Part shown: positions 39,770-64,000 of the stretch, in pieces
Layout: each line of letters opens with the position of its first letter
Position numbering within the stretch: position 1 is the stretch's first letter
NCBI GenBank assembly: GCA_036172245.1
Contig: JAYWIR010000002.1
Span: 1,860,001 to 1,924,000, forward strand
DNA length: 64,000 bases
Direction: 5' to 3'
Origin: Raillietiella orientalis
Taxonomy: Eukaryota
Notes under the pieces: model-generated
Database searches by the model: none
The model's input: only the letters and a program-made list of their open reading frames with translations
What the model was told of the DNA's origin: nothing
Made by a program: the position numbers and the translations under genes

Positions 39770-40300
39770 GTTCCGGTGACCAGCAAGGAGCAGGAGAATC
39801 TTCCTGGAACTCTTCTCTGCCTCAGGAGACAGTGGATCGTGAGGCGCTCAAAACAAGGGGGGGGGAACTGAACTTGCGGCACGATCCAAGAGTCTATGCC
39901 GAAAATATTCAGCTTCCTTGCTTTCTCGCCGTGAGTTCTTTGGAGCAGCGGACCTCCTGCTTGCTTGCTCCTTCGGGATTCCCAACGTCCTCCGACAACG
40001 GGAAAGCCGATTCGACCCCCTTCCTTGCTCAAGCAACCAGAGGATGATGCGGATCTCCCCGTTGCAGATCTATCTTGGATTCTTCTGTATGGCAACCACA
40101 CGAGCGTATTGAGGGTCCCGCGCGCGCACTCGGACGTGGACCCCAGGTTGACCGCGGACGTTCTTTCATGCGGCAGCCGCCGTTGCGGGATGACACCCTC
40201 TTCCCTGACGCGGGAAGAACTGGTCGACGAGGCTTCCCATGAAGCCGCCAGAAGGATCCGGTGGTATTGAGCCAGAGCTCGAAGCTCTCTACCTCTGCAG
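39770..40300 (-). mobile_element. Highly decayed L2/CR1-like LINE 3' relic
   Basis: Fragments TLVWLPYRRIQ and DRAASSVPPP(CFERLTIH) resemble the L2 ORF2 C-terminal LHWLPV..RI and DRAFS..P.LWN.LP motifs; frameshifted. Confidence 0.3.
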
Positions 40301-43300
40301 TGAGGTCACTCGACCTCGGCTGGGGATCTGCTGGAAGCCAGCAGAGCGCGGGCAGGTTGTTTCGGGCGATTCGTTCTTCCCGGAGGCACGGGTCGGAGGT
40401 TCGCAGAGAAGCCTTCGCGAGCAAGGATCAACGGGGACGACTCCTGGAGAGGAGTGGGGAAGGAAGGGAGGAGGAGAGGAAAGACCACGCGTCCTCTACC
40501 ACCCAGAGAGAAGCGTCAGCACGCGGGAAGGAGTCGGCCGTTGTCCCCACACTTTCCTGCTTACCCCTGGAATGCAGGAGCAATAAGGGAGAGAGCGAAG
40601 GAGGAAGGGAATTCTCCGCTCCTCCGCCCCCCCCCCTCTCCCGAGAGAAGGCCGTGAGTGAGTCCGGGGAGAGCCGCGCGCGCACGGAACGGCAGCGGAT
40701 CGACGGAACCATAGAGATGCGGGACGCTGGAAAGAGATCCTCCCCACTCCAGTACACCTCATGGCAGGGAAGGGGAGTTTATCGGTATTTCGTGGGGAGT
40801 CTTGCTTTGGACCCACCCTTGCGAACGCCCGGGAGCTTAGCAACCGTCCTTTCGCACGTGCGTCCTTTCTTTCGATGGATCTTGGCGCTTCGTTCTCCCG
40901 CGTGAGGTCGGGCGAACGACAGGCCCCGGCAACAGTGAAGAGGGTGGACTGCTTTCAGGGCGCGCAAGAGCGCGTGAGAGGGGGAGAGGAAGGGGGGTTG
41001 GTCCTCCCGACTTCCTCCTCCCCACGCGGGAAGGAGGACGGGTTTTCGGTACTGGAGTGTCCAGTACCGAAAACCCCCTCCCCCTACTCTGGCGCTTTTC
41101 GTTTCCTCGAGGAAGAGGGGCGGGGACCTGGGTAAGGGTCCTCCGTCCCTCTGAAGGATCCCAAAGGCGAAGACTACCGGCGTTGTCTCCAACTTGCCCT
41201 GGGCGGGGCAGCAGGGCTGGCCGAAGAAGGCACTTCCGGAGCCGAAGGGCCCGCAGCGTCATACCCGAGGGCTCCAGAGGAGGGGGCGCGGGAGAGGGAG
41301 GATGAGACGGTACCGCCGCAGAGCGACCTCGCAGGAAAGGGGAGAGGAGCGTCAGCGTCTCCTGAAAGGGATCCCCTCTCCAGGGAGGAGGGTCCCTTTC
41401 GGGGAAGCCAGCGCCCCCGAAAGGCAGCGCCCTTGCCGGACCTTGCCTTTCCCCCTGTCCTTGGGAAGAACGTCCATGGGGAAGGGGAGGGGGGGGAAAG
41501 AGGAGCGGAAACTTTGCAGAGGACGGACATTGGGAGGAGGAAAGGGGCGGGTGCAACCCGCCCTGACTTCATCGCTCCCCCCCCGTCATCGTCCTGGGGG
41601 CGGCGCGCGCATCGACCCTCCCACTCTGCCGTCGCCGCCTCCGCCGCCTACATTCCCCGGGCACCGGCGGTCCTTCGGGAAGAGGTGGGGTAGCAGTGTC
41701 GGTCGTCTGCGTTTCCGGGCGCGTCCGGCGGCAAAGCGGTCCTCGCCCTCATTGTCAGCGAGGAATCTCGTGCGAGCCGGAGAGGAAAGGAAGGAAGGAA
41801 GGGGGGGGGAGGGAATCCGAGCCGCGAGGGAACAAAGGCCGGGACGGAACACCTGGAGCAGGCAGGAACGCGCGCTCCTCACCATTGTGTCTTCCCGATG
41901 ACAGCTGCCCCTCATGCTTTTACAGGCGGCGGTCGAGGAGGGAGCGAGTGCGCCCGTGCTGGGAAAAAAAAAAATTCAACAATCGGAGTGGCACTGGTGC
42001 TGCCGCCTCGCTTGCATTCCTGCAAGCGGCAGTGACCTCTCCATCTACTTGGCGCGTCGGTGGTCCCTTCGAGGAGGGGAGCGGCGCAGTCCCTCGTCCC
42101 TTCTCCCGTTCCCTGGCTCGCGCCCGTGCGGCAGGAGCGCAGGGAGGTTGGTCGCGAAGGGAGGACGGGAGAAACGACGAGCGCTGGAACAACGGACGAT
42201 GGGTCGGCTCGTTGGTCCCCCACCCACCCAGTTAGTCCTCACCTCCCCCACTTCCCTCACTCATCTCCCTCCCGCCAGCGAGCTGGGCGCGAACTCCTTC
42301 CCTTTCCAAGAGGACTCGCCGCCTGCCCTCTCCGAGCAGACGGCAGAGGCGGAGCGACCGCGAGAGAGCCCGAGGGTCCCAGAGGCGGGGGCAGGCGAGT
42401 GAGGTCGCAGAGGTCGCGGGTCACGACCCACACAGCCTTGCGCGAAACGAAGACGGCGGAAACAAAGAGGAGGGGGACATCCCCGCTGGGACGCTTCGCC
42501 TCTCCCGCGCGAGGTTCGCTGGGGCCGCAGCATCGGAGAAAACGCGAGGGGGCGCGCCCTCGCTTGGATGCCTCCGACTCCAAAAAGCAGAGCGAAAGAG
42601 CGCAGGCAGAGTCGGTGCTTCGGTCGCCGGCGTTCCCAGTCTGAGCGGGAAATTCAGTTGTTGTTGTTATCTTTTTAATTTGTTGTTTTTTTTCATCTTT
42701 TCATTTTTATTTTATTTTTTTCTAGCTCGCGATGCTCGCTTCCCTCCAGGCGGCTTTTGGACTCACTCTTGTTGACGCCGAGTATCGTAGCGACCGTACT
42801 TTTGCGCGCGCGCCGCGATGCCCCGCTCGGACTGGTTGCCGTTGTTCCCTGGCGCCATCTGCACGACGTCACGGGAACGAACACGCACAGAAGAAGCAAA
42901 AAACGATTCTGTGGACCACGGTGCGCATGCTCGCTCGCATCTCGCGTCTTCGGATGGAGGTCGTAAGTTGCATCGGACCATGCCGCCACGATCACGTGAC
43001 GAGTGAAAACCGTCCGATCCTGCCCAAGATCAGCCTCACATGATCGAAACCGCGTGGGGACACGTGCGCGCGCGCCGGGACGCATCCCGGAACCGCTTCC
43101 CTGCTGGGCCGCCTCCGATTCGTGTCGCAGCGTCGGCTCCCGCTCGTCGCGAGCGGGAACCGCCGTCGTCGCGCCACGCCGGTCGGTCGGCAACGGCCCA
43201 TCCTCGCGGGTCCTGTCAAACGGAGCGGAGGTGCTGGCGCGCGCGGGAGGGTACCCTAAGCTTCCCGTTGCCTGGGCAGCCGAGCAGCTGGCTCTCGCCT

Positions 43301-43359
43301 TTTCTTCCTAATTGCGAAACAGGCGAGCAGTAATTTACTTTTCTTTTCGAATCTGCACC

Positions 43360-43460
43360 TAAAAAAGCCGCCATGTTGAGCGCGCGCGTCACGTCATTGG
43401 CTGAGCGTCGAATCACGCAATCGATCGTTCACCAATCGCCATACTTTTGTCGGTAAATGG
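43360..43460. promoter_or_regulatory. Housekeeping-type promoter motif cluster (YY1, CRE-like, two CCAAT)
   Basis: GCCGCCATGTTG (YY1) 43367-43378; TCACGTCA 43389-43396; ATTGG 43396-43400; CCAAT 43432-43436; second CGCCAT 43437-43442; CpG-rich context. Confidence 0.55.
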
Positions 43461-43970
43461 TTGCGTTTCCGTTTTTCCCTTTCAAAATGACGATTATCGA
43501 CGTATCGTGTGTGTGTGTATGTGTGTGTGTTTTTCGGGGGGGGGGGGAGAGGGGGAGCTTCTTTTTGTTTTACTTTTGCCGTTATGGTATTTGTCTGAAG
43601 ATCACGAATTGTTTGTTTGCTCTCTTGCTCTTCCCCCCCCACACACACACAAAAAAAAAAGTAGGCCGCTTTTTTTCCCCTCAATGGTTCGAAAGCGTCT
43701 TTCGCTCAGAGTTTCTGCGCGATCCGCTTCGTTTACATTAATTGTGAGGCACGGAGTGCCGCCGCCGCCGCTGCAATCCCAAATCCCTCTGCAGAGAGAC
43801 ATGCGTTCGGGGAACGGGCGTGGAGGGGAGGGGGAGCAGGACGCGAGCCATCTTTCGATCCCGATTTCGGGGGAAGGTGGGAGGGGGGGGGGGAGGAATT
43901 GGCCTTGCTTCTGTTCGGCGATTCAACCTTCCTTTCGAAATTCTTGAGTAATGGCTGAAACCGCAAAGTT

Positions 43971-43977
<7 letters not shown>

Positions 43978-44008
<31 letters not shown>
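43978..44008. repeat. (CA)n microsatellite
   Basis: Seen directly. Confidence 0.95.
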
Positions 44009-44011
<3 letters not shown>

Positions 44012-47000
44012 GCTGGATGCTCCCCAAGCGGTGAAAGCAGGACGCGAGGATCGTCAGCGGGAACCGAGGAGGCAGATAGAAGATAAGCCGCCGCCGCCGC
44101 CCTCTACTGATGGCGGCGCGCGCGACCGTTTTCTTTCTCGCAACGCCCCGCTGCTGCTGTCCCCTGCCTCGTTCCAGGGAAGCCGAGCTCTTCCCCGAGG
44201 AGCAGATGGCGACCCCCTCCCCCACCCCCAAACGGCAACAATGTGCAACAGTGGCGAAGGACGAAAAAAAATAAAAAGAATGGAGGAGGATCCTCGGAGG
44301 AGAGGATATCCTGGCGTCGGGAGTGGGACGGGAAACTGTGTTTCGCGAATGGCTTCTATTTTTGAGGGAAGCTTCGTTATCTCCTTTAAAGGCGAGCTTC
44401 TTTTTTTTTTTTTCCTTCCTTTTTTTTCCTTTTTATTTTTAGATGCATCGCCTTGATTGTTTACCCATAGCAAAAATACGAGGAAACCGGCGGCTGTTTA
44501 CTATTGCGGAAATGGTAAACAGCTGCCAGTTGGCTTGTCCGTCACTTAGCCGGATCCGTCACCCTGACAACGAGTGGCGCTTTTTCTTCCTGGGAAGCAA
44601 AAAGTTACGTGTTGCGCGTCACTTGAACCCGCCGTGCGCGTGCGTGCGAGCGAACTCGGCTACGTTGAGGAACGAAGAAAAAAAAAAGCAAAGCGAAGCA
44701 AGGGCAAAGGACATTCTTCCTCTTTTTTCCTTTTTTTTTTTTTTTTTCTGTAAGGGGAGACCTACCTCCTCCCCTTCTCCTCCTCCCTCGTACGACGAGA
44801 CTTGCCGCTGTCCGTAGAGATGAACTGCGTTCTCCCGGACAGTTTCGCTTAGAACACGGATGCGTGTGTAAAGAAGGGGGGAGCAAATCTGCTGTGGAGC
44901 ACCTCGGGGAGGAGGAGGAGGAAGCTGTCCGCCTAAGAGGGTTCGCGTGTCTCAGCGCGCGCGGACGAGTTGGGCTCTCTCAGCTGGAGCTCCCGCAAGT
45001 TTGTAAACAACCCGGAAAACCCTCGCCGCAACCCCTGGAAACACCCGGCGGGCATTCGGTGAAGCTCCTCCTCCTCCTTTTCCTCCCGCCCCGGACCCAT
45101 AGCGTCCAATCCTTCCCCGAGGTGAAGGGGCGAAGCCGCTCCTCGTTCCCTTGGTGACCGGTCCTACGTTCCTGAGACCCAAGAAGGGAGGGGCTGTGTG
45201 CTGCCGCGATGCGTTCCCCTCGGGATGCTGCGAAACTGCTCTTCTCCTTCTTCTGCCCCCCCCCCCCTTCCCCCATTCTCCTCGCTTTCCCCTCCCTCAG
45301 AAACAAAGGAAAGGCTCAGGTCCTGAGGCTCCGTGGTGGTAGAGAAAAACGACCACGACAGCACGAGTTCCTCTAACGCCGGGCATGCTCCCGGTTGTTT
45401 CTCTGTCTCGCGCACGCGCGCGCCCTCGTAGCTCCCGTTGAAACTGAACGGCGGTGTTTCTTCCTTTTTCTGGAAAGGTCCCTTGGGTCTTCTCCTTTTC
45501 CTTGCACTCTCAACGCAACGCAGCCGTCCCGGTCCCGACTGAATACGATCGCCACATCCGACGGGAGAAGCACGGCAAAGGACAGAGGCGGGACGCAGGA
45601 AGCTGTCTCTCCTCTTCACCCGCAGGGGGGAGGGGAGCACACTGGCGGTTTCGGTGGGAGCACCAGCGGCAGGATGCCCGAGCATCCGAAGAACCATGGC
45701 AGGAGACCGGATGATTGTGGAAAATCCAGATGGAACAGCAAATCCGGCGCCCTCTTCGCGGCACAGTTCGTCATCACTCCCCGCTCCCGATTTCCCGTTC
45801 TCTTCCAGTCCCGAACTCGCGCGGATGGTTCCCAGAGTGGTGCGGCCGCTAGGCTGCGGCAGGGCGGGTGACACGCCCGCGGAGTTTTCCGATGATGGGA
45901 CGCCAAACTAAGAGCCTCTCTTGCCGATCCCCGTCCTTTCCTTTTCTCTGGAAGCGCAAGCGGGAAGGAAGTGGGGCGATGCGTCCACGAGACAACAGCA
46001 GGACGACGCTCCTGCCGAAGTCCGGCGCTTAGGTCTCCCTCACGCCAGACGTCCGCAATGTCAGCACCTCTTTTTCTTCCTTGACTTTACTAAAACCACT
46101 GCAGACCTACAAGGAAAAAAAAAAAAAAAGGCAGATGGAACAAAGGGAAGGTGATTAGATGATTGGGGTCGAGTAGGAGGACGGGCGAACGGGTTCCATC
46201 CAGTACGTGGAAATCTGCGGATGCTTCTCCAACAACGAGATGCCTCTGCAGCTCAGGGAGCCCCGAGAGATCCCGACACATCAGTCACCCGAAGCAGGTT
46301 CACCGGCTGTTGTCGAGGTGGTCCCTGTCCGTTCCCAAGCGCACACCCGAAAAAATGAACTGCGTTGCGATGACAGGGAAATCCCTTCCCTAACGACCGC
46401 TGTTACTCACTCTTATTGGATTGATAAGAGAACGCGTCACTGCCGATCGCCTGTTCGCTCCTTTCCCCATCCGCCTTCGATAATAGGCATTTGTTTAAAT
46501 GTTCTTATAACTTGTATAAATTATCGCGATTACCAATATCCGGTTTGCTGCGATGCCGTCACCGTCGCCAGCGGACTTTTCTGCGGATCAGCGTGGTCAC
46601 TGGCGCCACAGCGAGCTCGCAGCAGCTGACAGATCGAATCTGCAGCTTCGCGATCTTTCCAGAAAGTCCCATCGGACTCCTTCCGTCCTCCCAGCAAGCT
46701 CTTCCCATGGGCGGCAACGCGGAGGCGAGGACTCCGGGTTCTGGGATGCTGGATAGATGGCTCTTCCCCACGCGAAAATCCACGGACGTGCACCCCGGCC
46801 AAATTCATTCGAACGCGCATCTTCGTTTCAGCTCTCCCCAAGCCGATCCCACACGAATCGGCGGCTTAAAGGATGAGTCTGCGAGTTTGAGGAAAATGAT
46901 GGCGCAATTTAAGGAGAAGCCATATTTGTGAGGGAGCAGACTCGACTTCCTTTCTCGAGGTTCCCAACGCATCCTTTTTCTCTCAAAAGGTAACTCTGCC

Positions 47001-48942: not shown

Positions 48943-49422
48943 CTAAGAACAAAGCATTTCTGGATGGAGAAAACCTCTGTATACTAATTTTCGAACAAGC
49001 TTGGGTGAAGGAATAATGTGCCCAAAGATAATGTTCTGCGCATCTCTTAAATCTTTTGCTCTAATTTTCGTCTTCCATTCATTGTAACCGTGCCATCTGC
49101 GATTCAGTCTGATGTGCTGATAAAAGACGAGACTTACACGTGCAGGATGAGTGTAATCTGGCTGCTGAAGAGCACTTGTCGCATGCAATTCTTGCTGGGC
49201 ACATTCTAAGAGAATGGAGCCAAGGGGCAGAGCCAGGCTAACACCTCCTTGTTTTTCTGTATCGACCGGCCTGACGCAGGAATAATCATGGTCGTATAGA
49301 CTTGGATTAGGATGCAATGTGAAGAGTGGATCAGGAATGGAATGAGGCCGGTACTGAGGTAGTATATGGAACTGTTCATCAGGAACACCATCAACCAGGC
49401 GAGGACAGGTTAAGGTCAGCAC
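48943..49422 (-). CDS. TET: TET terminal coding exon 7 (distal His and 2-OG Arg)
   Basis: DEQFHILPQY...ELHATS..HPARVSLVFYQH..WHG; TAG stop at 48943-48945. Confidence 0.94.
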   Translation of the reverse strand: MLTLTCPRLVDGVPDEQFHILPQYRPHSIPDPLFTLHPNPSLYDHDYSCVRPVDTEKQGGVSLALPLGSILLECAQQELHATSALQQPDYTHPARVSLVFYQHIRLNRRWHGYNEWKTKIRAKDLRDAQNIIFGHIIPSPKLVRKLVYRGFLHPEMLCS

Positions 49423-52400
49423 CTAGGTAGAATGTTCGAAAGAAGGTACAGGAAACATGGTGACTCACTGCAGTGCAACCTTGTGGTACATTGCGAGAGT
49501 CCCGATGAGGATGGGCACAAAAATCCATGCATACTGTTACACCAGAAAAGGGTCGTTTGGACCCAGAACCTAGACGGCATTCCAAGCCACAATCAGTGAG
49601 ACGTATCATGTTTTCAACTGCTTGTGGAACAAGTTTGCAAGTAACAAGAGCCACTTGGTCAGCTAGAGCAGACAACTTAGCTTCCAGTTTTCTCTCCTTG
49701 CAGCCCAGAGAAAGTTGCACACTACCATAACTGTGCTTGGCTCACCTCTTTGGTGCAGCTCAAACGAAACCTGCGTGGTTTCTGTGCGCACTTGCTAAAT
49801 TTGCATCCGTTGTAGAACTCGCTCCATCCACAACCAAACGTAAAGCACCTCCCTCTCTTGTTTTTATCTTTCCCCTGACAGAAACAAGTATGCTGAGGGT
49901 TTGTTTCACATCGCCTACGTGTACCTGCCCCACCAAAACGCACCAATTTTTCACAAAGACTATGTATTAAAGGATTGAACAAATAAGCAGAGTCCAGACC
50001 CACTTACAAAGAGTACAGCTGCTGTGCTTGACTCAGAGGAATCCCCTCCCAGGCCACCAAGGCCACCACAACCCATGAAAATTCACATGTATGCCCAGGA
50101 CGATGAAATACGAGGCTCAAATATTTCTCTTCATGGCTAGTTCTGCGCAGCACCTGCAGACAGGAGCACATGCTCATAGCACCAATGAACACACACTTTG
50201 TACAAAGCATTTTATTTACAATCCGGCAATAGGAGCAGCCATTTTGGCAGCTGTCCCAACATACACATGCACATAGGCCTCAACCACTTTGCTGAGAGAC
50301 AGGAGCTCAATGCTGCCTTGAGATCAGACACATGATTGGTTGGGTAATGAGGTAGCAGCAAAGTGCGAGGCCAAATAAAGCTCTGTATGGGGGTGCCACT
50401 ATGGCAGTCTTTCCCAGAAGTCAGGTCATGGTAGCAAAAGGAGACCCACCCAACATTGGATTTGCATTACCCATTGGGGCAGGGGACAACCTGCCAGATC
50501 CTTAGTTTCAGGAATTAATGTCAATTGCTCCAAGCGTAGTCCTGGGCCACTAGTTCCAGTGCGTTGCTCCAGAAGATGGCAAAGATCTTCGAGGTTTTGT
50601 GCTGCCCCCAAGTGGGTATAATTTGCAGCTTTCACTAGTAAACAGTCATTAAACACCTTAGTTCTACGGAAGAAAGCCCACCTGGATTCATCGAAACTGG
50701 ACACTGACAGGAAGAATTTGAGGATAGGCCTTCTTTTCCACACACAGGTGAGCTGCCTGCAGCTATTTTTTCTGCAGATGTCCTTCTATTGGCTAAAAAA
50801 TGCTTGCACGTGGGGGCATTTGCAGAGCAGACGGAACCACCAGTCTGGAGGTGGTTGGAAAATTCAGCTGCATTGGGAATGTGCCAATCACCCATATTTT
50901 TTGTTTCATTCTGAAGTGCCAGTGATTCTACTGGGGTACTGCCAAATTTCAGGACCTCACATTTGCTCCAGGTAATGCTGTTCAGGTCATCAAATTTATC
51001 TAGCTTGGGCAATTCCATCATAGGAGGAAGTTTCTCCAATAGTTCATGCAATTCTCCATCCACACATACTCCCCTGCTCCCTTCGCCTGGATACCCGGGA
51101 GAGCTACAGCTGGGTAAGCTCTTTAGGGGAGTGTGGGCTGTTAGGTATCCAGGCTTCGCGTTTGGGTAGGTGCTCTCAGAATAACTGTTGACTAATTCGT
51201 GTAAGTCTTTAGGGATGGCTCCATAAGCTTGCATCGGAGATTCAAGATTTCTTTGGTGTCCATAAACAGGGTCCAGGTAATGCAAACCTCCACTGCTGAG
51301 ATCACTGGACACAGGTGAAGATGAGCCACCTCCATTGGTTTGGGTATAAGCTTCATTGACAGCAAACGCCTGCACACCAGGCAAAAAAGCGCTTTGCGCA
51401 TGATAATCAAATGGAGTTAAAGATGAAGTAACTGGAAAAGGAGGACCCAATCGTGAATCTCCTTGTGCTGAAACACCAAAACTCCCTCCTCCATATGCTG
51501 CGGACTGGTAACACAGAGGAGTTGCAAATCTTTCTTGGATTGTAAACTGTCGCTCAGACGGCAGCTGACCATAAGCAGAACTCGAAGTTGTTCCAAATAA
51601 AGGTATCATCGATGACTAAAGGAAAGAAATATCAGTATGGAATGCACGTTTAAGGCATGTATCAAGTGCACTAATTACGTTTGAGGAGTAAAAATTTCTC
51701 AGGAGCGAATGGATCGCAGTATATTTTTGCATTCGCCTTTTTTTTTTTTTTTCCTTTCTTTCTTTCTTTTTCTACTGATCCTTTTGATTATGCCATTACA
51801 AATATCATACTGCTGCCTCCTTAATTTTGGCTGTGAAAAATACGTACGTTTCATCGTATAACGAAGAATAGCGATTTGAACATCTTTTTTTTTTAAAGAA
51901 AAATAAAAAAATAAAATATTTATTTGTATCATTTAAATACGCGTAACCGTTTTTTTGAAAAAAAAAATAAAAAACAAAAATTCGATGCTACAAAAATGTA
52001 CCAAGGTTGGTGCAATTTTCGTTCGCGCTTGTATAATTTTTGAAACTAGCAAAATAATGTAACGGATGAAGCTAACATTTGGCAACGCTGGTCCTTATTT
52101 TGCCGTTAGTTCAAGCAACAACATATTGCGAGAAGCTTCATCAGGGATCACGTGTCATTCACATCTGCCGTTGTCACAGAGAGAGAGGATCACGCGTGGA
52201 GAACAATAGCAATCTGAAAAGCGGGAACTATATGCTTCCTCAAACTAAAACATTTGGTGTGAAAAAAACGCTAACCGTAAACTGCCCGGAATTCTTCTTT
52301 TTCCAATGATCGGCCGCAAAAAAGGAAAAAGAAAAAAAAAAAAAAAAAAAAAAAAGGAGGACATTATGTATGTCACAAAATCGCAAAATTTTACAGTAAT

Positions 52401-55400
52401 TGTCATAGACCGCTACTTTTCGTGCGTAGAATTTCAAAGTGTGAATTGGGGCAAAATGAGCAACTACGCCGAAAACTGATGCCCCCCCCCCAAAAAAATG
52501 TATGATTTCTTTTCTTTTAACGTATGATCAAATATGTATAAATTTTGCTGCTTCGCGCGACTCCAAAATAATTTGTATCATGCAATATCCATCTGGTCAC
52601 ACGGATTACGGCATGCCGTCATAACTATACGACCTTCACATACTTATAAAACTGTTTTACTATGCTGCTTCTCCGCAGCCCCCAGGCAAAACTGGGCAGG
52701 CATACTTTCCCGCATTACGATGTTACAGACGCTGGTGAGACAGAAAACCGAAAGCCCCGAGTAGCCGGTGCACACGTACACACACGTACACGTACACGCC
52801 GCCGTTCCCGTGTGCTCTCGGCACAAAGGACGCAACAATGGACGCGGCGGCGACGCTACACTGAACCCATTCGTCCTTGCCAAATGACATTGCATCCACC
52901 ATCTCCGGACGTGTCTAGACTCCGAGCTAAAGCCCTGCGGCTCGAGAATCCCTACCCTTAGCGTTTTCCTTAAAAGTTGTACGGCAGAGCTGCGTTTACG
53001 CGCGATGACTGCGCTCATCCCGGACCAGGCAGGCAGGGTAATAACGTGCAAGAGTTGACAGCGAGGGGTGCGGGTTACGTAAGTTCAACTCTTACCACTT
53101 GTCCTACTGACGTGGCTGCTGCTGAGGCTTGGCGATTTACTTTAGCGTCGGGTCGCTGATTCGGCTGAAAGTACAAAAGCAATCAATTCGACATATAGCG
53201 TCCAAGCTTTCTGGTGCATTCGAAAAACCGCAACATCAACCTCCCATCTTTCGGCGCGTCAAAAGTTGCGAAAACGGAACCGCGGCGGGAAAAAGCAGCA
53301 GAGGCGGATTCGAAGTGCCAGAAAAGATTCGAGAATTCTCATCCGTTCTACATTCTCCCGTCAGGTCGCTTTGGGTTTGCGAAACGGATGGGGAAAAAAC
53401 ATGAAGCGGACCGCGCCAGAAAGCACGGGCAGCAACAATCTGTTTACGTTTTGAGGGTAACAAGGGGAACAAACAGCGATTTCCTCAGGCAAAAAAAGCT
53501 CGAGGCCATCGGAGAGGCTTTTTCTTTTTTTTTTTTTTTTTCTGTTCCCAATGGCTGCACGAGATATCCGAAGCGCACCGAAATCGATGAAATTAAAAAT
53601 CGAAGGCTTTCCGAGATTTGCGTTTGGAAAGATCGACTCGCTGCGATCGCTCGCCGGCAGAAGACGCGGGGACCGCCATCTTTTTTTCCTTTTTCTTGTT
53701 TTTTTATTACATCATTTTATTGAAAACGTGTATACCATTACATTGCTTGCAGCAGCATGCGGTTCGTATTTCTACACTTCCGAAGATACGAGGCACGCAG
53801 TACCGGGAATGCAGCAGCTGTGCGAATGAGGCACGCTTTTATGAACGTAAGAAAGCCAGATGCCCAAGTGTGTCCTTGAACGAGGATCGGGTGCTACGAT
53901 TAACGTAATTTTTTTTTTTTGGGTCGATCGGACAGTACCGTAACGATTGTTGGAAACGAATCCGTTCGGGGACTTCTGGGACCGGTCCATTGTTGACGGA
54001 CCCGGCAACCGTCGGGTGTTGCCGTGGTGGCGCGGGAAAGATGCTGCTCGGGATCCATGTGAACGCAGGCGGCAGTTGTTAAGCAACCCTCCCAAGTACG
54101 ATTTTGCTTGGCGCTTGATTCGATCGGCGTTAATTACAAGCGATTTCTGATCAGCCACCGCCATGGCGACTGATAGAGGGAGGAAGGAAGGAAGGAAGGA
54201 AGGAAAGAAAGAGAGAGAGAGAGAAAAAAAAAAAGGCCTCCCCAACCGTACGCCAATTGTATTCTTCCGAATTCCCGTAATCTGCAAAATATTGCAGTTA
54301 GATCAATGCATGAAATGAGTCATGGAAATATCGATCCAGGTCCGTAAGAGAATGCGTCATAAGCCCGGTGAAAACGTTTCCCTAACCAAACGTAACGTGG
54401 ACTATAAAATCCGCGAGTGCTGCTTTTTCCAAATGATTATTATGGGTATGACGAACCAGGCAACAATTATTTGACTGCTACAATTTTTTTTTAAGAAAAA
54501 AAAAAGAAAAAAAGTGCAAATGTTTACCACAGAGGGAAAACCCGATAAAGGAGAAATGAAAGCATTTACCTGAAAGCAAAAAATTTCATCAATTTGGTGT
54601 TTTGCGCAATCTGATACTGTAACTCAAAAGCTCATTATTTAGGGCAAAAAGGAAAAACTTGATAAAAAAAAAACAAAAAACAAGAACTTGGTAGCAAAAA
54701 AAAAATTAAAAAAAAAACAAAAAAAAATATTGTTTGGTTTGCTTTTCATCCACTAACGTGTACGCTTTTACCTGTAGCTGCATCTACCAAGGGTGGGCCT
54801 TTGTGTTACATGTTTAAAGGAAATTGTCAATTGTTTTTGCTTGAAATGGGTAAAGTGTCTACATAAAAATTACAGCATTCTCTCTACCTTTTCAAAGTTC
54901 TTATGAACTTACTCTTTTTTCTGTAAGTTTTTCACAACGACGCATCTTGCAAATTTGATGGCTCTTTTCATTTCGGCAGGGAGCGCATTCTCCACAATTG
55001 TCTTTGCGCTGGCAGCCGATGCATTCTCCGCAGCGCTTACGCTTCTTCTTTACGGGCTTGTCCCTATCCCCTGGATTGGGGGGAGGCTTGAAGCCCTCCG
55101 TGCCATCGCTGCTCGATACTGCAGCTACCTGTGACATCGCTTCACTTACAGAAGTGTCACTTTCGCTTCCCTCGAGCGAAGAACTACGCACTTTTTTCTT
55201 AGATTCACGGCGGCGGGGGTTTGGGGTCTCTGGTAAGGCATAATTGTAGGGCACAGTACCAGTAATGATTGGCTGGCTTTTGGGGCGCTCTAATGAGTCA
55301 GCAGAATAGCAATCTGAATGCTCCAGTTTAGCACTGGCACTGCGTGGATAGGGGGATGCCTGAGAACATGGGGGTGAAACTGCCTGAGAAGTTGCTGAGC

Positions 55401-56154
55401 TGCAATTAGAAGGAAGAGGCAGAGAAAATCCTGTATCCTCCAAATACTGGTGGGTTATGGATAAAGGAGTTCCAGGATGAGAAGCTCCTATCCTGTAATG
55501 CTGAGAGGAAGAGAGGCCATGAAAAGAGGGAACATTCTGATCGCCTTCTGGGCAATCAGCTCCAGTGGGAAAAGCTTGAAACTGGGACTGGAAAGAAGGA
55601 AGCTTCTGCATATGGCTATAATCAGTAACTGAGGTAGAAGTTAGGTCACCAAAGGCATCAGGAAAAGAAGTCATGTGATCAGGTGATGAGGAATCAGGCC
55701 AGGTACTGCTGATGGCTGGACTATGTGGCCCGGGCTTTTTTTCCCATGGCCGATACTGAGGCACTGAGGTAGACGTTGAGAGTTCTGAGTTGTGATTGGG
55801 ATCACCATTAATATGAATTCCAGAAAGATTGGTGTGTCCACCACGTTCCAAAAGTCGAGCTGTCAGACCTTCTGAGTACAGGTCAGTGTAGCCCAGCAAA
55901 TGGACATCACCTTCTATCATTCTTGAATTTCCATCCTCACTAATTCCTTCAACATGGAGTCGAGAACCTAATCCTTCCATGTCTGAGAAAATACTGAATG
56001 GAGGAAGTGCCGAGCTCTTCAAATCCATACTTTCACCATTATTATTCATAAAGCTCCTAGTAATATGTTCACAGTTATATTCCTCTTTGTTTGTGGAATA
56101 TTCTTCACCTGAGCTATCTAAGGGGTTACCACCCCGAGTTCTTGTATCACTCAT
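48943..56154 (-). CDS. TET: TET-family methylcytosine dioxygenase with CXXC zinc finger (7 coding exons, 1135 aa)
   Basis: Exons 56154-54913, 51615-50682, 50634-50471, 50153-50008, 49959-49746, 49696-49469 and 49422-48943 join in frame (3408 nt). Motifs: CXXC finger; Cys-rich region (CQC..YTHLGA..GCP..W..GHTC..WEGIP..RRC..CFCQG..FGC.W..YNGCKF); DSBH RPFSGVTVCMDFCAHPHRD (HxD), DEQFHILPQY, GGVSLA..GSILLECA..ELHAT..HPARVSLVFYQH. Confidence 0.96.
49469..49696 (-). CDS. TET: TET coding exon 6 (HxD iron motif)
   Basis: ECRLG..RPFSGVTVCMDFCAHPHRDSRN |gtgagt. Confidence 0.94.
49746..49959 (-). CDS. TET: TET coding exon 5
   Basis: RRCETN..TCFCQG..FTFGCGWSEFYNGCKF |gtgagc. Confidence 0.93.
50008..50153 (-). 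CDS. TET: TET coding exon 4
   Basis: VLRRTSHEEKYL..GHTC..VAWEGIPLSQAQQLYS |gtaagt. Confidence 0.93.
50471..50634 (-). CDS. TET: TET coding exon 3
   Basis: YTHLGAAQNLEDL...GCPLPQW |gtaatg. Confidence 0.92.
50682..51615 (-). CDS. TET: TET coding exon 2 (linker and start of Cys-rich domain)
   Basis: ctttag| SSMIPLFG...SCQCPVSMNP |gtgggc; phase 0 matches exon 1. Confidence 0.88.
54913..56154 (-). CDS. TET: TET coding exon 1: low-complexity N-terminus plus CXXC zinc finger
   Basis: KKKRKRCGECIGCQRKDNCGECAPCRNEKSHQICKMRRCEKL (TET/IDAX-type CXXC with HQ motif); donor AGA|gtaagt; in-frame stops just upstream of the ATG. Confidence 0.92.
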
Positions 56155-56931
56155 CTTCTATCATTTTGCTTCTAGGAAAACATCAAAATTAAATTCCAAC
56201 TCTTTGCACCTCAGGATTAAGGTGACACACAATTTACAATTCCATAATTTACAATGAACAGTGAAAGCACACAACGTGAGAAACAAGTTACACATGCATG
56301 ATTCAACCATTTCAAAAATACAAACACATCATTTTTTCACTGATCACCTTTAGCGTCTTGTAAACTGGAAACATGCATGTACACACTCACATACACAAGT
56401 TTATGCCACTCACCGAACGATACATTTGCAGAACACACACACAGAAGACATTCTTTTTGACAAAGGTTACGTTGCTTAACAAATTCAAATGAAATTTATG
56501 AATTTATGCATTCAAATAAAAACCCGATGCGCAAAAAAAGAAAAAAAAAAGAAAAATATGCATCCACAAATTATGCTCCCACGCTCACTACCAAACTAGT
56601 GAAACGAACGGTCGTCCCGATTCCTGTTTTTCTTGATTTCCCAAGCAGTTTCATGTAACACCTGCGAGCTATCTTGAAAAATTCCGCCAAGTTTGCATAT
56701 TGAATTATCCTTAATTTCCGCGCGAAATTACAAAAACGCACTTTTTCCTTTTTCCTTTTTGTTCCCGTAACACGGAAGAAGAAGAAGGAGAGGAATCGGA
56801 AGGAGGAGGTGGCAAAAGATGAAAAAAAAGCAAAAAAGAGGGAGGGGGCCAAAAAATAAAAAATAAAGAAAAGAAAAAAAAAAAGAGAAAAAAAGGGGGG
56901 AAAAAAGGAAAAAAGTGCACACCACCAAACA

Positions 56932-56996: not shown

Positions 56997-59314
56997 CCAA
57001 CACAACGTGCTCGAGCAACACTTACCCCCTAGATCGACCCACACAGTCATCACCACCACCGCTCAGTTCTCACTCGTGAACTTCACGACCTACTACTCCA
57101 CACTCCAGCAATGCTTTACTCTTGCGATACACTATTTGGTAGATGGCTCTCCGGTAATTGTTGTTACTGCACCAATCCTAGCGGTCGAATTATTGGTTTT
57201 CGCTTTGGGTCACATCATCAGGGGACCATGGCGAAATATTCCGGGTTTCCTTTAATTGGTCCAGTGCCGATGTTCATCTCCAATTTTTGAAATGCAGAGA
57301 GAGAGGGGGGAAAAAAAAATGCGAGCGTGTCAGCGATCATTAGATGTTTGAACGCGTACACCAGTACGTCGCAGAGTACCTTTACACAACACGTAAATTC
57401 ATGTAAAACCCGATTCAAGTTTCCTGGATTTGATTTGCGCAAAAAAAAAAAAAAAAAAAAAAAAGAAGGAAAAAAGAAGAAGAAGAAGAAAAAAAAAAAA
57501 GAGGAAGAGGGAGAGGGGGGGGGGGAACGGCAGAAAGAAAGAAAGAATGAGAGAAAGAGAGAGAGAGAGAGAAAAAAAAATGAAATAAAAAGTATCTCCG
57601 ATTTTTATATACTGTTGGTACTCGGAGCTCTTCAGGGCAGAAAGCCTTTGTGTTGTTACATTCGTGATTCATGGAGAAATTTCCTATGCCTGTAGATGAA
57701 CATTTTTCCGATCCATCAGATGCTGTATTTTAAATGCCTTTTTTGTTTTCCTTTTTTTTTTTTCACTGAATAAAAAATCTTCCGAAACGGAATTTTTTGG
57801 GTGAGCGTGTTTTTTTTTTTTCTCTCTCTCTCTCGCTCTCTCTTCCCTCGTCAGCAGGATTCATGTGGTGTGTGGTACACTACCTCTGAGCCGCCAACTC
57901 CCTCCCCCCCCCCTCCCGAGAGGAAAAAAAAAAAAAGAAAAAAAAAGTGCACTTTGCTCTCCGTGTCCCTATTAAATAAACTTATTTATATTGAATCGGA
58001 GCGGCGATCGAAAACAGAAGAGGAAAAGAGAGAGGGGAAAAAAAAAAAAAAAACTGGACGTTTCCGTTAGCACGAGGCGCATGGAATTTCGAAAACCGAA
58101 AAAGACCTGCGAGCATCCTGGCGGATGAAAGACCTCTTCGATTTACATGTGCTGCTGCATGTACCAGAAAACTGTGTGTTCCGGATCGAAATTTCACTGA
58201 AACAAACAAACATAGAGAGGTGGGGGGGGGGGGGTAGAGGGAAAAAAAAGGATGGAAGAAAAATTTGAATTTTGTAAGAGCGCTGGCGAAATCAGCGAGC
58301 AGCGAGCGTCGATTAAGCTTCGATTTAATTCACTTTTGGTACGCTGGCGAGAGACGCCTCGACGTTCCCCGCCTGCCTCGGGTGAGCACCGCAAAGGTCC
58401 AGATGCGGAGGAAACCATGAAGAAAATATCGATTTAAAATCGAGGACCCCGAGATGCAGTGGATGCACACGATTTCCGATTTTCAAAAATCAATATTCGC
58501 TGCATCCCACATGAATCATTGAGAGTGGCCAGAGCTCCCGGGTATGAGTCATTGCTACATGTTTGACAGAACTGCAGCAGCCAACTGATTTTTGGGAATA
58601 ACAAAAATGGAATGTAAAAATAGAATGCACATTTTCCATTATGCAGCATTCGATGGGAGGAAGTGTTTTCGCTAAATGCTCAGCGTCGTCACCGTAGCAA
58701 CTCGGGTGTGTTTCTTGGTTTATCATCCAACAGAACACTGCTGGCGCTTATGCAGCGTTTTTCTCTTTTTTTTCCTCTCCCCCCCCCCTTCTTTTTAAAA
58801 AAGAAGAAAAAAAAAAAACAAAAACAAACAAAGTTTTTCGGATGAGCAGAAACCGAGTGCTGAAAGATGTGTTTTCGGAAAGCCAGTGCTTTGCTTCAGG
58901 TTGCTTTATTATCAGTAGCCTCAATGAAAAAAGAAAAAAAAAGCGTGGAACGGACTGGATGGCCACGGCTTCCGCAAACCTCTTGCTTTTTGACGCTGCG
59001 AATTCCGTTTTCTTTCCGAACGTTCCTTCTGCACGGACACGGAATCCGCCCCGTAAAACGTGAGTGCACGCTGCGTTAAATGCGAGGCATTCCAGGAGGA
59101 GGAAAATATTGATTCGCTAGAATATAGATTCGTAGATGTTCGGGTCTATTTCGGGCACGGCAAAACTTCCGTGTCGCGCGAGGCTCGGCGTAAAAACGGG
59201 CCGAAAGCCACTCCGCAGTCGTGTGCCTGCCTGTGTGTGTGTTTCAGGGGCTTTGGTGTATGTGTGCAACTTCATTCTGGAATAATGAGGTTAGCATCAG
59301 GATGTGCAAACTCC

Positions 59315-59470
59315 GCACGCACGCACCATGCACGCACTCACTCACACACACACGACACACACACACGACACACACACACGACACACACACACGACACACA
59401 CACACACACACACGACACACACACACACACCACACACACACACACACACATACACGCACGCACGCACGCA
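59315..59470. repeat. Compound (CA)n microsatellite with periodic CGA interruptions and (CACG)n flanks
   Basis: cacacacacacgacacacac... seen directly. Confidence 0.95.
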
Positions 59471-59560
59471 ACGCGAAGCGGCGGCGGCGGCGGCGGCGTG
59501 CGCATGCGCGCTGCCGTCGCCGCCGCCGCTCCGTCCGTATGCGCGCCGCGCTCGCAAATA
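59470..59560. promoter_or_regulatory. Candidate TET upstream promoter element: NRF1/EWG-type site at the edge of a CpG island
   Basis: TGCGCATGCGCG at 59499-59510 next to a (GGC)n run, about 3.3 kb 5' of the TET ATG. Confidence 0.4.
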
Positions 59561-59839
59561 GCGAGGATTCCCTCCCTGCCGCTGCTCCCCGCGCCTTGTT
59601 TTCGCTTTGTTTTGCCTGCGCTCCGTCGGAATTTTGGAGAAATTTTGCAGTTGCTGCTGCTGCCGCCGGCGCCGGGATGAGATTTGCAGAGCGGGAATCT
59701 CCGCCTGGAAAGGCGCGCGCGCGGACTGTGCAAGCGGAACGAAAGGGGAAGCCGTAAAAAACTTAATATACGCTGGGATAAAAAAGATTTTATGATCCTT
59801 TTTTTTTTTTTTTTGTTTGGCGTGCAGGGGATCCTGAAG

Positions 59840-61334
59840 GAAGGTGGGGGGGGGGGAGGAGGCTCGCTCTCAATGCGAGGGGGATCCGGAGACGGGAGGA
59901 GGGGAGACAGAAATCCGCGCGTTTTTCGAACGATGGGGAGGGGGGGGTGGCTCCTCTGCTGCCGCGAGTAGTCGCGATTCGGCGGCTACGAACGGATTCC
60001 GAGGAAACGATTCTATGCAGAAGAGAAGGGGGAGGAATCGGGAGCGGAAGCGCAAGAGCGACGGGGGGGGAGGGGGGGAAGCTGGGGAAGAAGAACGACG
60101 AGAAAGGCGGGAGAATCGCGCGCGCACGTTTCGCGAGACCCAGGAATGGAAGATCACACACGCGCACGACCCGTGCCTACGGGTTCCCCCCCCCCCCTCC
60201 CCCTCCCTTTCCCCATGAGTGCGGAAGGCGTGCGAAGCTACCTGTGTGTGCGCGCGCGCGCGCGCGGCAGCGTGCAATGCATCATCACCGTCCAAAGGAG
60301 GGAGGGAGAGAGCGAGAATGCGCAAGGAAAAATTCGATTTTTCGAGCGGGAGCGTCCTGGATTTTCCCCCCTCCTCCTCCCTCCCTCCCTCCCCGCCCCG
60401 CCCCGATCGGGAAACTCTTCGTCGCGAGTAGTAAACATCGCGCTTTCCCCTCCCCCTCCCCCTTTTTTCTCCCCCTCCGTCCGCCCGCCTGCTCGAGGAA
60501 CGCGTCCGGAGGAAAAAAAAAAAAAAAAAGTGACCCTGTTCTCCGCAATGCCCATCAGATGGCAGGCGCCCGCGCTTCTTCCCTTCCTCCTTCGGGGAGA
60601 AGGGGGGGGGGGTTCGTGCCCCCAGCGCGCACGCGCGTACGAGCGAGAGAGCGAGGGATCTTGGGGACGCCAGAGAACGTGGACGTGTGCGGCAAACAAA
60701 CAAATTCCCTCCCTCCTTCCCCTTCCCCCTCCCCGAACGCTCAAGAGAAAAAAAAAACGCCAAAAAAAAAAGAGGGGGGGGGGAAGGGTGAGGAGGAGGG
60801 GGAGGGAAAGAAAAGGGGTGGCAGTAAGGGACCAAAACAAAAAAATGAGAGGCGCGGGCGTCGGACTACGCAGGAAGTTTCGCGCGCGCCGCTCCATTTT
60901 TTTCCCTTCCCCCGTCCCAGGGACGGACGGAGGAGTAGGAGGAGGGTGGTGGTCCGCGCGCAAGGATTTTGTTTGCTCGATCACCGCGAAAATCGCCGCT
61001 GCCCTCTCCCCTCCTCACCCTCAAAGCTTCTGGGGGGGAGCAGGGACGCCTCTGAACGTCCACGCGCTCGAAAAGGGCAGGAAGGAGGGGGGCAAGCTTA
61101 AGGAAGAGCAAGAGGAAGGACCCCCTCCGCCATAGAAACAGCGGGGGAGGACGCGCACGCGTCCAGCGAAGGTCTCCTCGGTCGAAGCGCTCCCTCCGGG
61201 ACACGTTCCGAGAGATGGGATACAGAAGATGCGCGGTTGGCCCCTCTTGCTGAATGGTAGGGGTCGGCTCGCGACCCACCCCACCCCTCCCCCTCCCCTT
61301 AGATGAGATGCCGTTGTCCGAAACGTCCCCCCCC

Positions 61335-61385
<51 letters not shown>

Positions 61386-64000
61386 CCCCCTCCCGACCCA
61401 GCTCGTCCTTCCCGAACGAATTCCCGAGGCTTTCCGCCCGCGAGAGGCTGTGTCCGGAGCCGATAGCGTCTTCGCGCCGTCTCCTTGGAAACGGCGGGAG
61501 CTCCTCCCTCCCTTCGCGTGCCTCTCTCGCGCGCGCGCTTCGTCGGTCGCAAAGAGAGGGCGCTTCCCTCTTCCTCCCTCCCCCGCCGCCCCCCTCCCTT
61601 CTACCGCCCGGAGTGGGCCGCCGCCCCCGACGGACGCGCGAAAACCGCGGCGTCCCCTTCGCCGCCGCCACGCGCTCACTGCCCCGCCGGCGACAGGCGG
61701 AAGGCGGGGGCGGGTGAAAAAGGGGGAAGGGGGAGGGGCGAGGAGGAGGGAGGAAGAGGGAAGCGCCGCCGCCGCGGAAAGACGGACGGGCAACCCGCCG
61801 CGCGCGCGGAAGCGGCCCGCTGGCAGCGGTCAGCCGCTCTTCCCCTGGAAGGGCGGAGGTGGCAGGGGAACGATTTCCTTAGGATCGTCCCGGTCGCGCG
61901 TCCGGGACACCCCTCCGCTCGTCCGCACAAGGAAGGGGAGCCCCGCTGATAGGGATGAGGGCGCCGGGAGGAGGAGCGGGAAGCGTGGGGCGGGACGGAC
62001 CTTTCCTTCCCTTCGAGCGCGACGAGGGAAGAGGAAGGGAGCGAGGAGGGGGAAACCCGTCCTTCCTGGGACGTCCGCTGCGTACCCGGAAGCGCCGTCA
62101 TCTCCCGGATTTCCGCTCCTCACCGACAGGGGAGGGGGTCACAGGCGGCTCCTCCCATCCTGTTCTTTCCTGCCCTAGAGATTCTTTCTCCCCCCCCCCC
62201 CATCTCGGTGCACCCGCCGACAGCAGCGCCACCAGCGAGCTCCCTAAAATCACTTGGCCTGCCCCCCTACCCCGCCCTCGCGCGGGCTCCTTCTGGCCTC
62301 GGTTTCGCTCAGGTTGCTGCACTCCTCCCTGCTTCCCTGGGGTACCAGCCCCTCACGAGAGAACCCTTCCCCATGAGAACGTGACAGGGGGAAGAGGAAA
62401 AGTGACTGGGAGGGGACCTCCCTCCCCACCCCGAAGGGGTGCGGAGCTCGCGCGCGTGAGGCTTCCCCCGCGGAGTCGACACCGCGAGCGGGCGGCGGCT
62501 GCCGTCCTCGTCGGGGCGGGAAGTCGCAGTCCGGAAGAGCGGAAGGGAAAGCCGGCAACGCGTCTCCGGGAATTCTCCCTCCTCCTCCTCCCTCCCCCTC
62601 CTTCCTGCGCGCGTCTCAGGGCGTGCAACAAGCGCTTCCGGGTGGAGTTGACCTCCGGGAACAGGAAAAACGGAAGAGTTCCGGGAACGAAAGCGGAACG
62701 CTTCCGGGAGCGGGACGAGAGGACCCGAGATCCGTGGGTCGCTCGGCCGCCTCTCCCACCGCTGCTAGCTCAAGGACCGGAAGATCCTCCCGACGGGCCA
62801 CACAGGCGACAGGGGCAGGGGAGGGCCGAGAAGGAAGAAAGAAAGACCTGCCGGCTTCCCCCTTCCCACCTTCCTCACTCGGAGGCTGCCGTGGTCGTGC
62901 CACTGCGCCTCGCGGCTACAGGACGGCGCAGAGGTGCGGCAGTGGGGAGGGAGGGACAAGAGCAAGGTGTTCCTCCTCTCTCGGCCTCCCCCCCTTCTTC
63001 GTGAGTCCTAGGACTCCCCTTCACCCTCGTGTCCCCCTCTCCCTCCCTCGCCTCCGGGTGACTCCCACCCCGTTTCTTTCCAGGAGGGTCCAGGGGTCCA
63101 GGGGGAGATCCGCAGTCAGGGCCGGTCCTCACTTGCCCGCGCTTTGCGGGAGGAGCTGTCCACAAAGGGAGGGAGGGAGGTCGCCGCAACCTCAGCGTCG
63201 TCGCTCCCCCCTCTCTCTCTTCCTGCCCGATCCCCCTCCAAGGTCCCTGCCTCCATGCTTCCTTCGGCGGGGCTTCCCCGGCGCCTTTCGGCCCCCCAGC
63301 CGCCCCGAAATGAGGCCGTCGCTGCCGGCGCCGGCCGCGCTCGCCTCCTCGTCGCGATAGCAACCGGAAGGGACTCCTCACCCCGCTCTTCCGCCACTCC
63401 CCCTCCTCCTCACTCCTCTGCTCCGTTCCACCCGCAGAGCTTCTCCTCTACGCGGAGAGCGACTTCTGTGGGGAACTGACGGGGGGACCGGGAGGAGATA
63501 ATGGGTGTGGTGGAGACTCTCGGGCGGCTTCGTTTCCTGCTGGGTGAAGGGGGTCGAGGGGGGAGGCAACGGAGCCAGTTGCCGCTTGAGGCGGAGTAAG
63601 GAGGAAGGAGTGGATGGGTTTCCAGGGAAGCGCCGGAGGCGGCAGGCTGTCCACCCACCACCCAACATTCCGTGAGGCTGAGCCCTCTCCCTGGAAGAAC
63701 GGCCCTCCCTCCTTAGATGGGATTCCCCCCGTTCTCCGGAAGTGGAGCGGACCCTCCTCAGAGGGGAGCTACGTCAGGGGCAAGCGAATGGGGAGGGAGC
63801 GGCTCACTCTGCTCGAGTACGGAGAAAAAAGGGGTTGGGACCTGGGGGCTTTCTTGGGGGAGGGAAAGGGGACACACACGGGGCGATCAAGCCCTGAAGC
63901 GACCAACCAGGAGAATGGTGGGCCCTCTCGCACGCTTCCCTACGCCTGCTCTGGGGTTCCCCGACGGGGGAGGGGGAGGGGTGCTAATCCTCAAGAGAGC
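59840..64000. other. GC/CpG-rich, purine/pyrimidine-skewed low-complexity island
   Basis: Dense CpG and many G- and C-runs; overlapping ORFs in all frames with no recognisable domain. Confidence 0.6.
61338..61381. repeat. (CT)n microsatellite
   Basis: Seen directly. Confidence 0.95.

Follow-up and report, generated by a model that had tools for sequence, protein, structure and literature searches.

A probable CXXC-type TET dioxygenase gene of Raillietiella orientalis with a 34-residue spacer in place of the low-complexity insert

Can an animal TET dioxygenase do without the long disordered insert that parts the two halves of its catalytic double-stranded beta-helix (DSBH)? Published work counts this insert among the features common to animal TETs (PMC10936051, PMC4150289, PMC4691057). 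The question is raised by a gene on the minus strand (56154-48943) of a 64,000-nt stretch of Raillietiella orientalis DNA (contig JAYWIR010000002.1, positions 1,860,001 to 1,924,000; hereafter the window), which an initial annotation, made from the letters of the sequence, had described as a naturally miniaturised TET. We put at roughly 0.7 the probability that the region then described (48943-50710) is the 3' half of a real gene, transcribed and containing introns, for a CXXC-type (animal-type) TET of 1158 amino acids (aa), an Fe(II)/2-oxoglutarate (2-OG) dioxygenase, and it is highly probable that a real CXXC-type TET with a spacer of at most 34 aa is present. The protein is a natural variant of a well-known enzyme family and is new as such; it does not represent a new kind of system.

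The gene was assembled from eight exons, all on the minus strand, which join into an open frame of 1158 codons, and all seven introns have GT-AG ends. Exon 1 (54913..56154) carries the start codon, a Ser/Pro-rich N-terminal region and a complete CXXC finger (aa 369-407, 54934..55050), which was recognized by Pfam zf-CXXC (PF02008) with 31.8 bits (E 1.5e-7, cut-off 26.5). Exons 2 and 3 together encode a Ser/Pro-rich linker. The 5' boundary of exon 2 (53096..53164, 69 nt) was taken from an RNA joint and its 3' boundary was inferred from a GTAAGA donor and the frame, and exon 3 (50682..51615) is of low complexity and holds the first Cys pair (CQC) of the Cys-rich domain at its end. Exons 4 to 8 were each translated separately for a search of the PDB, in which human TET2 was the sole relative of each. 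Exon 4 (50471..50634), the N part of the Cys-rich domain from YTHLG to GCPLPQW, matched residues 22-73 of TET2 chain 4nm6_A (E 2.5e-5), and exon 5 (50008..50153), the part with GHTC, matched residues 75-121 (E 1.1e-11). Exon 6 (49746..49959), with the 2-OG arginine of RRC, the TCFC motif and the DNA loop FGCGWSEFYNGCKF, matched residues 126-186 (E 4.9e-15). The N-terminal half of the DSBH was found in exon 7 (49469..49696), with ECRLG, GVTVC and CAHPHRD (HxD at 49499-49507), which matched residues 193-266 (E 4.1e-16), and exon 8 (48943..49422) matched residues 282-301 plus 386-451 (E 1.4e-17).

Since exons 4 to 8 match the TET2 chain in strict order, the junctions abut without losing TET2 residues, which gives independent support for the splice model. 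The resemblance to TET2 is not due to chance. Exon 7 alone also exceeded the cut-off of Pfam Tet_JBP (PF12851; 49.0 bits, cut-off 34.9). The Cys-rich and DSBH parts from CQC (aa 740) to the stop measure 419 aa, in agreement with the approximately 420 aa first estimated, although the upper coordinate of 50710 then given should be 50709, where the first Cys codon begins. The combination of CXXC, Cys-rich domain and DSBH is the architecture of invertebrate TETs and of TET1 and TET3, which justifies the term animal-type TET, and the proposed animal TET identity was supported by the zf-CXXC score and by the collinearity of the Cys-rich/DSBH part with TET2.

Transcription was evaluated with RNA contigs from two runs, X1 (an RNA library matching the window at 95-99% identity) and X2. 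Contigs of X1 splice 50634|50682 (47-nt intron) and 49422|49469 (46-nt intron), with CT..AC ends on the plus strand, and a contig of X2 splices 53164|54913, so that three of the seven introns were confirmed. Exon 1 was covered at 54941-55167 and 55472-56128, and exon 3 at 50682-51327, with one contig continuing to 50634. Between the window and the RNA contigs 21 coding differences were found, 15 of them synonymous; all five inside the catalytic domain were synonymous, and the six replacements all lay in the N-terminal and linker regions. Such a pattern is expected from purifying selection on the enzyme core, and we regard it, in this small sample, as a sign of such selection.

Introns 1 to 7 measure 1748, 1480, 47, 317, 48, 49 and 46 nt. 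The four of 46-49 nt apparently belong to a minimal-intron class, the remaining three being those of 317, 1480 and 1748 nt. About 18 nt upstream of the TET ATG (56155-56180, minus strand) lies an acceptor-like ttttcctag, followed by an out-of-frame upstream open reading frame of five codons (atg ata gaa gat gag tga); the two together suggest either a trans-splice site or another, untranslated 5' exon lying upstream.

The spacer lies within the open reading frame 48943..49422 (minus strand), in which VLTLTCPRLVDGVPDEQFHILPQY is followed by 34 residues and then by GGVSLALPLGS...ELHAT...ARVSLVFYQH. These residues, RPHSIPDPLFTLHPNPSLYDHDYSCVRPVDTEKQ (aa 1024-1057, 49249..49350, minus strand), are encoded by 102 nt without a stop at the position of the low-complexity insert, and the spliced model gives exactly the 34 aa between DEQFHILPQY and GGVSLA that had been reported. 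Because the flanking motifs stand 102 nt apart in one open frame, a collinear transcript cannot hold more than 34 residues between them. A single in-frame GT..AG pair of at least 40 nt is present in the spacer (49257..49301, minus strand, 45 nt), and the spacer would be reduced to 19 aa if this segment were spliced like the 46-49 nt introns of the gene. TET2 is ordered up to Thr1463 and again from approximately 1842-1843 (PMC6625141), which by our arithmetic from this numbering leaves about 58 ordered residues between the two motifs versus 34 here. By sequence comparison the low-complexity insert is wholly absent, and part of the ordered flanks of TET2 is without a counterpart as well. The fold of exon 8 alone, a half-domain with an alignment of 39 rows, was predicted with a mean predicted local distance difference test (pLDDT) score of 66, confident only in two strands and the C-terminal helices; residues 1-58, including the spacer, were below about 55 and had no secondary structure, the half-domain being uninformative on the order of the spacer.

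How rare such a spacer is was determined among homologues. An exhaustive representative search with exon 8 as the query yielded 623 proteins at E <= 1e-3 and none at E <= 1e-30, the best match having 97 bits and 41% identity, and at E <= 1e-10 a profile search from short-spacer sequences yielded 1033 proteins, the 120 highest-scoring of them being listed. The survey set consisted of 266 homologues, the best-scoring matches listed, and it covers the lineages among these matches. Both flanking motifs were present in 140 of the 266, and the spacer was counted between these two anchors. Its median length was 359.5 aa, with extremes of 11 and 889 aa; it was 40 aa or less in four proteins (three clusters), 100 aa or less in six and 150 aa or less in 25, and 136 of the 140 had at least 65 aa. 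In named species with reliable models the shortest spacers were those of Hydractinia (138 aa), Tribolium (145-146 aa) and Hydra (154 aa), and the long end was reached by flies, a damselfly, a tick and a wasp (666-752 aa); in reliable full-length models of other animals the range was 138-889 residues. The distance from CxHxH(R/K)D to GG, which does not depend on the motif preceding the spacer, was 68 in the window protein versus a minimum of 112 in the 113 of the 266 proteins that have both motifs, none of which had a distance of 80 or less. Since the queries were themselves short-spacer sequences, the survey was biased towards short spacers, and the rarity is therefore robust within this sample. 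The initial annotation had proposed such a tabulation and had asked whether equally short inserts are common; 40 aa or less was found in only four of the 140 homologues, all from three environmental clusters. Its suggestion of uniqueness was overstated, since these clusters have spacers of 11, 20 and 40 aa, but the window protein is exceptionally short among the 140.

Some short values were set aside or treated with caution. Those of a partial Dendroctonus protein (65 aa) and of Timema californicum (78 aa) are likely due to gaps in the gene models, congeneric entries having 218 and 548 aa; both were kept in the counts. From phmmer coordinates P0041, P0081, P0085 and P0068 seemed to have spacers of 25-39 aa; these were rejected as spurious alignments of the preceding motif in proteins with long Pro/Tyr-rich inserts. 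P0080 (38 aa) and P0050 (39 aa), likewise estimated from phmmer coordinates, lack the GG motif and fall outside the motif-anchored count. A word-indexed protein search with exon 8, run for near and longer lengths, gave no match at E <= 1e-3 and no close relative in that collection, and in the Protein Atlas exon 8 reached only generic Tet_JBP-bearing clusters, mostly with fungal labels (0.90-0.91).

The named relatives are all animals, including cnidarians, arthropods, molluscs, a lancelet and vertebrates. In a tree of the domain (381 columns, those of the spacer being excluded) the nearest neighbors of the window protein were two hydrozoan TETs, but the support of 32 for this pairing is not significant and probably reflects long-branch effects in part. 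In a tree of the C-terminal half (97 columns) the environmental short-spacer fragments P0010, P0030 and P0042 grouped with copepod-type TETs (P0168, a Tigriopus entry), and a branch with a support of 94 separated them from the window protein. Shortening of the spacer therefore looks independent in the two, with more than one origin, in what is a weak tree of few columns. P0010, P0030 and P0042 may be short-spacer paralogues in marine crustacean-like plankton, as their grouping suggests; full-length copepod-type TETs near them have spacers of roughly 100-520 aa.

The residues needed for catalysis were compared with those of TET2. Both iron-binding motifs are kept, HRD being aligned to the TET2 HRD and the His of ELHAT to that of ELHAT, as are the 2-OG contacts (RRC to RRC, the Arg and Ser of ARVS to those of R-I-S, and the QFHILP His). 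The GVTVC Thr and the Tyr and His of YQH are kept too. The reported retention of HRD, ELHAT and ARVS was accordingly seen throughout the TET2 alignments. Cys and His residues of GCP, GHTC, TCxC, FGC, GCKF and ECRLG are conserved, the first CxC pair being CQC. The four TET2 zinc ligands C1221, C1289, C1358 and H1380 (PMC6625141) all have Cys or His as counterparts in the window protein, so that the claim that every zinc ligand is retained was found true of those checked, including these four. The CpG observed/expected ratio was 0.47 in the exons, 0.96 in the whole window and 1.31 in the two long introns (1.28-1.35). The exon value is compatible with a germline-methylated gene body, which hints weakly that a substrate may exist. 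The depletion of CpG within the gene was restricted to the exons and the short introns.

If the protein works as these residues suggest, the CXXC finger would bring it to CpG-rich DNA, and the Cys-rich/DSBH unit would flip out 5-methylcytosine (5mC) and oxidize it to 5-hydroxymethylcytosine (5hmC), with iron bound by the kept HxD...H residues and 2-OG by the Arg/Ser site. Oxidation would possibly proceed beyond 5hmC because the Thr/Tyr scaffold residues are kept. The 34-residue connection would close the double-stranded beta-helix in place of an insert of 138-889 residues. On balance the predicted protein is somewhat more likely than not to be an active 5mC dioxygenase.

Several observations weigh against reading the region as an intact gene for a working TET. 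Exon 8 alone scored 32.4 bits for Tet_JBP, just under the cut-off of 34.9. Introns 2, 5 and 6, most of exon 2 and 48943-49321 are without RNA cover. Contigs of X1 cover 50225-50601, and with it most of the 317-nt intron 4, unspliced and at a depth similar to that of the exons. Intron retention, pre-mRNA and carried-over DNA are possible reasons; in the same run the neighboring 47-nt intron was spliced out. The sole contig on exon 8 stops at 49322, so that RNA is present on 29 of the 102 nt of the spacer (49322-49350). The RNA check of the exon model that had been called for thus joined three introns but covered the spacer over its first 29 nt only. Likewise, the statement that the spacer is read through in one exon holds for the DNA, where the frame is open without a stop, but is matched in RNA only over those 29 nt.

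The remaining points concern divergence. The window protein is the most divergent of the set: identity of the domain to any homologue was 39-50%, and its end branch in the domain tree was 1.23 versus a median of 0.22. At 21 of the 118 columns conserved in at least 90% of the homologues it differs from the majority residue, agreeing at 97. Glu and Phe replace the Met and Tyr of the WSMYY loop, residues that occupy the space vacated by the flipped base. Tyr stands at an Arg conserved in 98% of the homologues, and Cys, Thr and Gln stand at a near-invariant Arg, Gly and Lys of the Cys-rich part. Leu was found where all 265 of 265 homologues have His (human H1868 in our own numbering), and H1868L has been reported as a somatic variant of TET2 that PolyPhen2 scores 1, damaging by prediction only (PMC4793581). 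Fast evolution and the loss of several near-invariant residues mean that activity or DNA preference may differ from those of canonical TETs. The expectation that the enzyme is probably active has only moderate support: the kept catalytic ligands and the five synonymous domain differences speak for it, but it is weakened by the changed columns and the long branch.

The long branch bears first on whether the gene is a specialized paralogue, a fast-evolving duplicate beside a canonical long-insert TET elsewhere in the genome, in which case the lineage would retain the insert. Long branches are typical of duplicates, and TET duplication is reported from at least one invertebrate phylum, with three copies in a chaetognath (PMC12460157). 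The window gene, however, keeps the ancestral CXXC, Cys-rich and DSBH architecture together with its introns, as expected of a single invertebrate orthologue, and we consider a paralogue unlikely. A degenerating or neofunctionalized TET, in which fold and metal site are kept and 5mC oxidation is abolished or redirected by the loss of invariant residues and of part of the ordered connection, is rather unlikely in our judgment. Such a protein might serve as a scaffold or CXXC reader, act on another nucleic acid or stop at 5hmC. The 21 changed columns, including the invariant His and the DNA-intercalating loop, would fit this explanation, as would the very long branch and a spacer shorter than the ordered part of TET2 (PMC6625141 and our arithmetic above). 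On the other side, no iron or 2-OG ligand has been lost, nor any of the zinc ligands checked, the frame is intact across eight exons of a spliced and expressed gene, and the differences in the catalytic domain, few as they are, are all synonymous. It is quite doubtful that the protein is both the only TET of a fast-evolving, poorly sampled lineage and fully active in vivo without an insert and with a shortened DSBH connection, the E-F loop and the Leu altering sequence preference or the depth of oxidation. Collapse of a repetitive insert during assembly, leaving an in-frame deletion, is very improbable: 49249-49321 is without RNA cover and so without independent sequence support, but the spacer is unique, non-repetitive and in frame, an independent RNA contig (95-99% identity) runs unbroken from exon 7 over the intron and 29 nt into the spacer, and natural spacers of 11, 20 and 40 aa occur in three other clusters.

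A genuine CXXC-type TET gene with a very short spacer would matter mainly for the biology of the insert. If the protein is active and the only TET of the organism, an animal lineage can do without the insert, with the DSBH halves joined by 34 residues; if it is the sole and fully active TET, it would prove by natural example that animals need no insert for their TET biology, and would represent a metazoan TET core of naturally minimal size. Set beside spacers of 138-154 aa in hydrozoans and 145-750 aa in insects, it would form a natural series in which the contribution of the insert can be compared. The initial annotation also saw in it a small epigenome-editing effector. This was overstated, and the value as an editing tool is modest: TET domains of comparable size from human, mouse and frog function with the insert deleted, and vertebrate TETs that carry a 15-residue Gly-Ser linker in its place are in current use (PMC11915426). 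Substitutions at invariant positions may weaken the window protein as a tool, and there would be little gain over existing deletion constructs unless it is unusually active or specific.

Other features of the window were noted as well. A large, multi-exon VPS13-like gene (987-31900, plus strand) extends past the left edge of the window and is convergent with the TET gene. VPS13_M gave 21.5 and 41 bits on its open reading frames 987-3041 and 14340-15323, both under the cut-off of 50; C-terminal-type VPS13 motifs were recognized by eye in the frames around 29723-30829, and the nearest Protein Atlas clusters of the VPS13-like frame were labelled Nematoda, Chordata and Arthropoda. The segments 40000-46000 and 59000-64000 are rich in G+C (58-67%); they hold simple repeats of (GA)n, (CA)n and runs of G, and both strands contain long frames free of stops. 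Coding exons have 45-50% G+C, and it is unusual that non-coding DNA is richer in G+C than exons. The GC-rich block upstream of the TET gene could be its promoter region. A search of the whole 64-kb window with Rfam gave no match.

Among known systems, human TET2 (4NM6, 5D9Y/5DEU, 7NE3, 9HXV) is like the window protein in having the N and C parts of the Cys-rich domain followed by the DSBH, and the two share HxD...H, RRC, R-x-S, the Thr/Tyr scaffold and the His of QxHxLP. They differ in E-F for M-Y of WSMYY, L for H1868, Y for R1891 and K/C for R1302/S1303, and TET2 has no CXXC finger of its own, whereas the window protein has one. Even the 4nm6_A crystal construct has 89 residues from LPLY (ending at 296) to GGVAVA (386) versus 34 here. 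Taking H1382 and H1881 as the residue numbers in the human protein, the alignments by our arithmetic place the native TET2 spacer at about 438 aa, close to the 440 aa given initially. NgTet1 of Naegleria (PDB 4LT5) is a TET/JBP 5mC dioxygenase of about 320 aa with a DSBH lacking the long insert, and it is not known to have a Cys-rich domain or CXXC finger. It was not among the PDB matches of any of exons 4 to 8 at the thresholds used, from which the window protein appears far closer to animal TETs.

Other close counterparts are the invertebrate TETs of 1150-1440 aa from Hydractinia symbiolongicarpus (XP_057309515.1, spacer 138 aa), Hydra vulgaris (XP_065651678.1, 154 aa) and Tribolium (145-146 aa). 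Their spacers are four times as long as that of the window protein, their branches measure 0.20-0.29 compared to 1.23, and the domain identity is 43-44%. Longer inserts are described for the honeybee (a long insertion of about 600 aa, PMC4150289) and for sea urchin, lancelet and vertebrate TETs (a 'sizable low-complexity region', PMC10936051). Insert length varies strongly among mammalian paralogues (PMC4691057), and the insert is also treated as a platform for phosphorylation and O-GlcNAc (PMC4335217). In the available portions of the literature found by our search, one engineered construct and no natural insert-less animal TET was described, and the supplements of PMC10936051 and PMC12460157 may hold spacer lengths.

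A naturally short link was seen in the environmental proteins P0042 (11 aa), P0010 (20 aa) and P0030 (40 aa), which have the same DEQxHxLPxY ... GG(L/V)(A/S) frame and share with the window protein the LPxGS turn and a conserved C-terminal tail. All three are incomplete, at 145-245 aa lacking the N-terminal half, and are 35-40% identical to exon 8. The engineered insert-deleted TETs, namely the TET2 crystal construct and hpTet3 of human, mouse and frog, likewise consist of the Cys-rich domain and the DSBH in about 450 aa without the insert, and insert-deleted Tet3 with a 15-residue Gly-Ser linker in its place is active in vitro (PMC11915426). In these proteins the deletion is man-made and the ordered flanks are kept, whereas the window protein is natural and its flanks are trimmed too.

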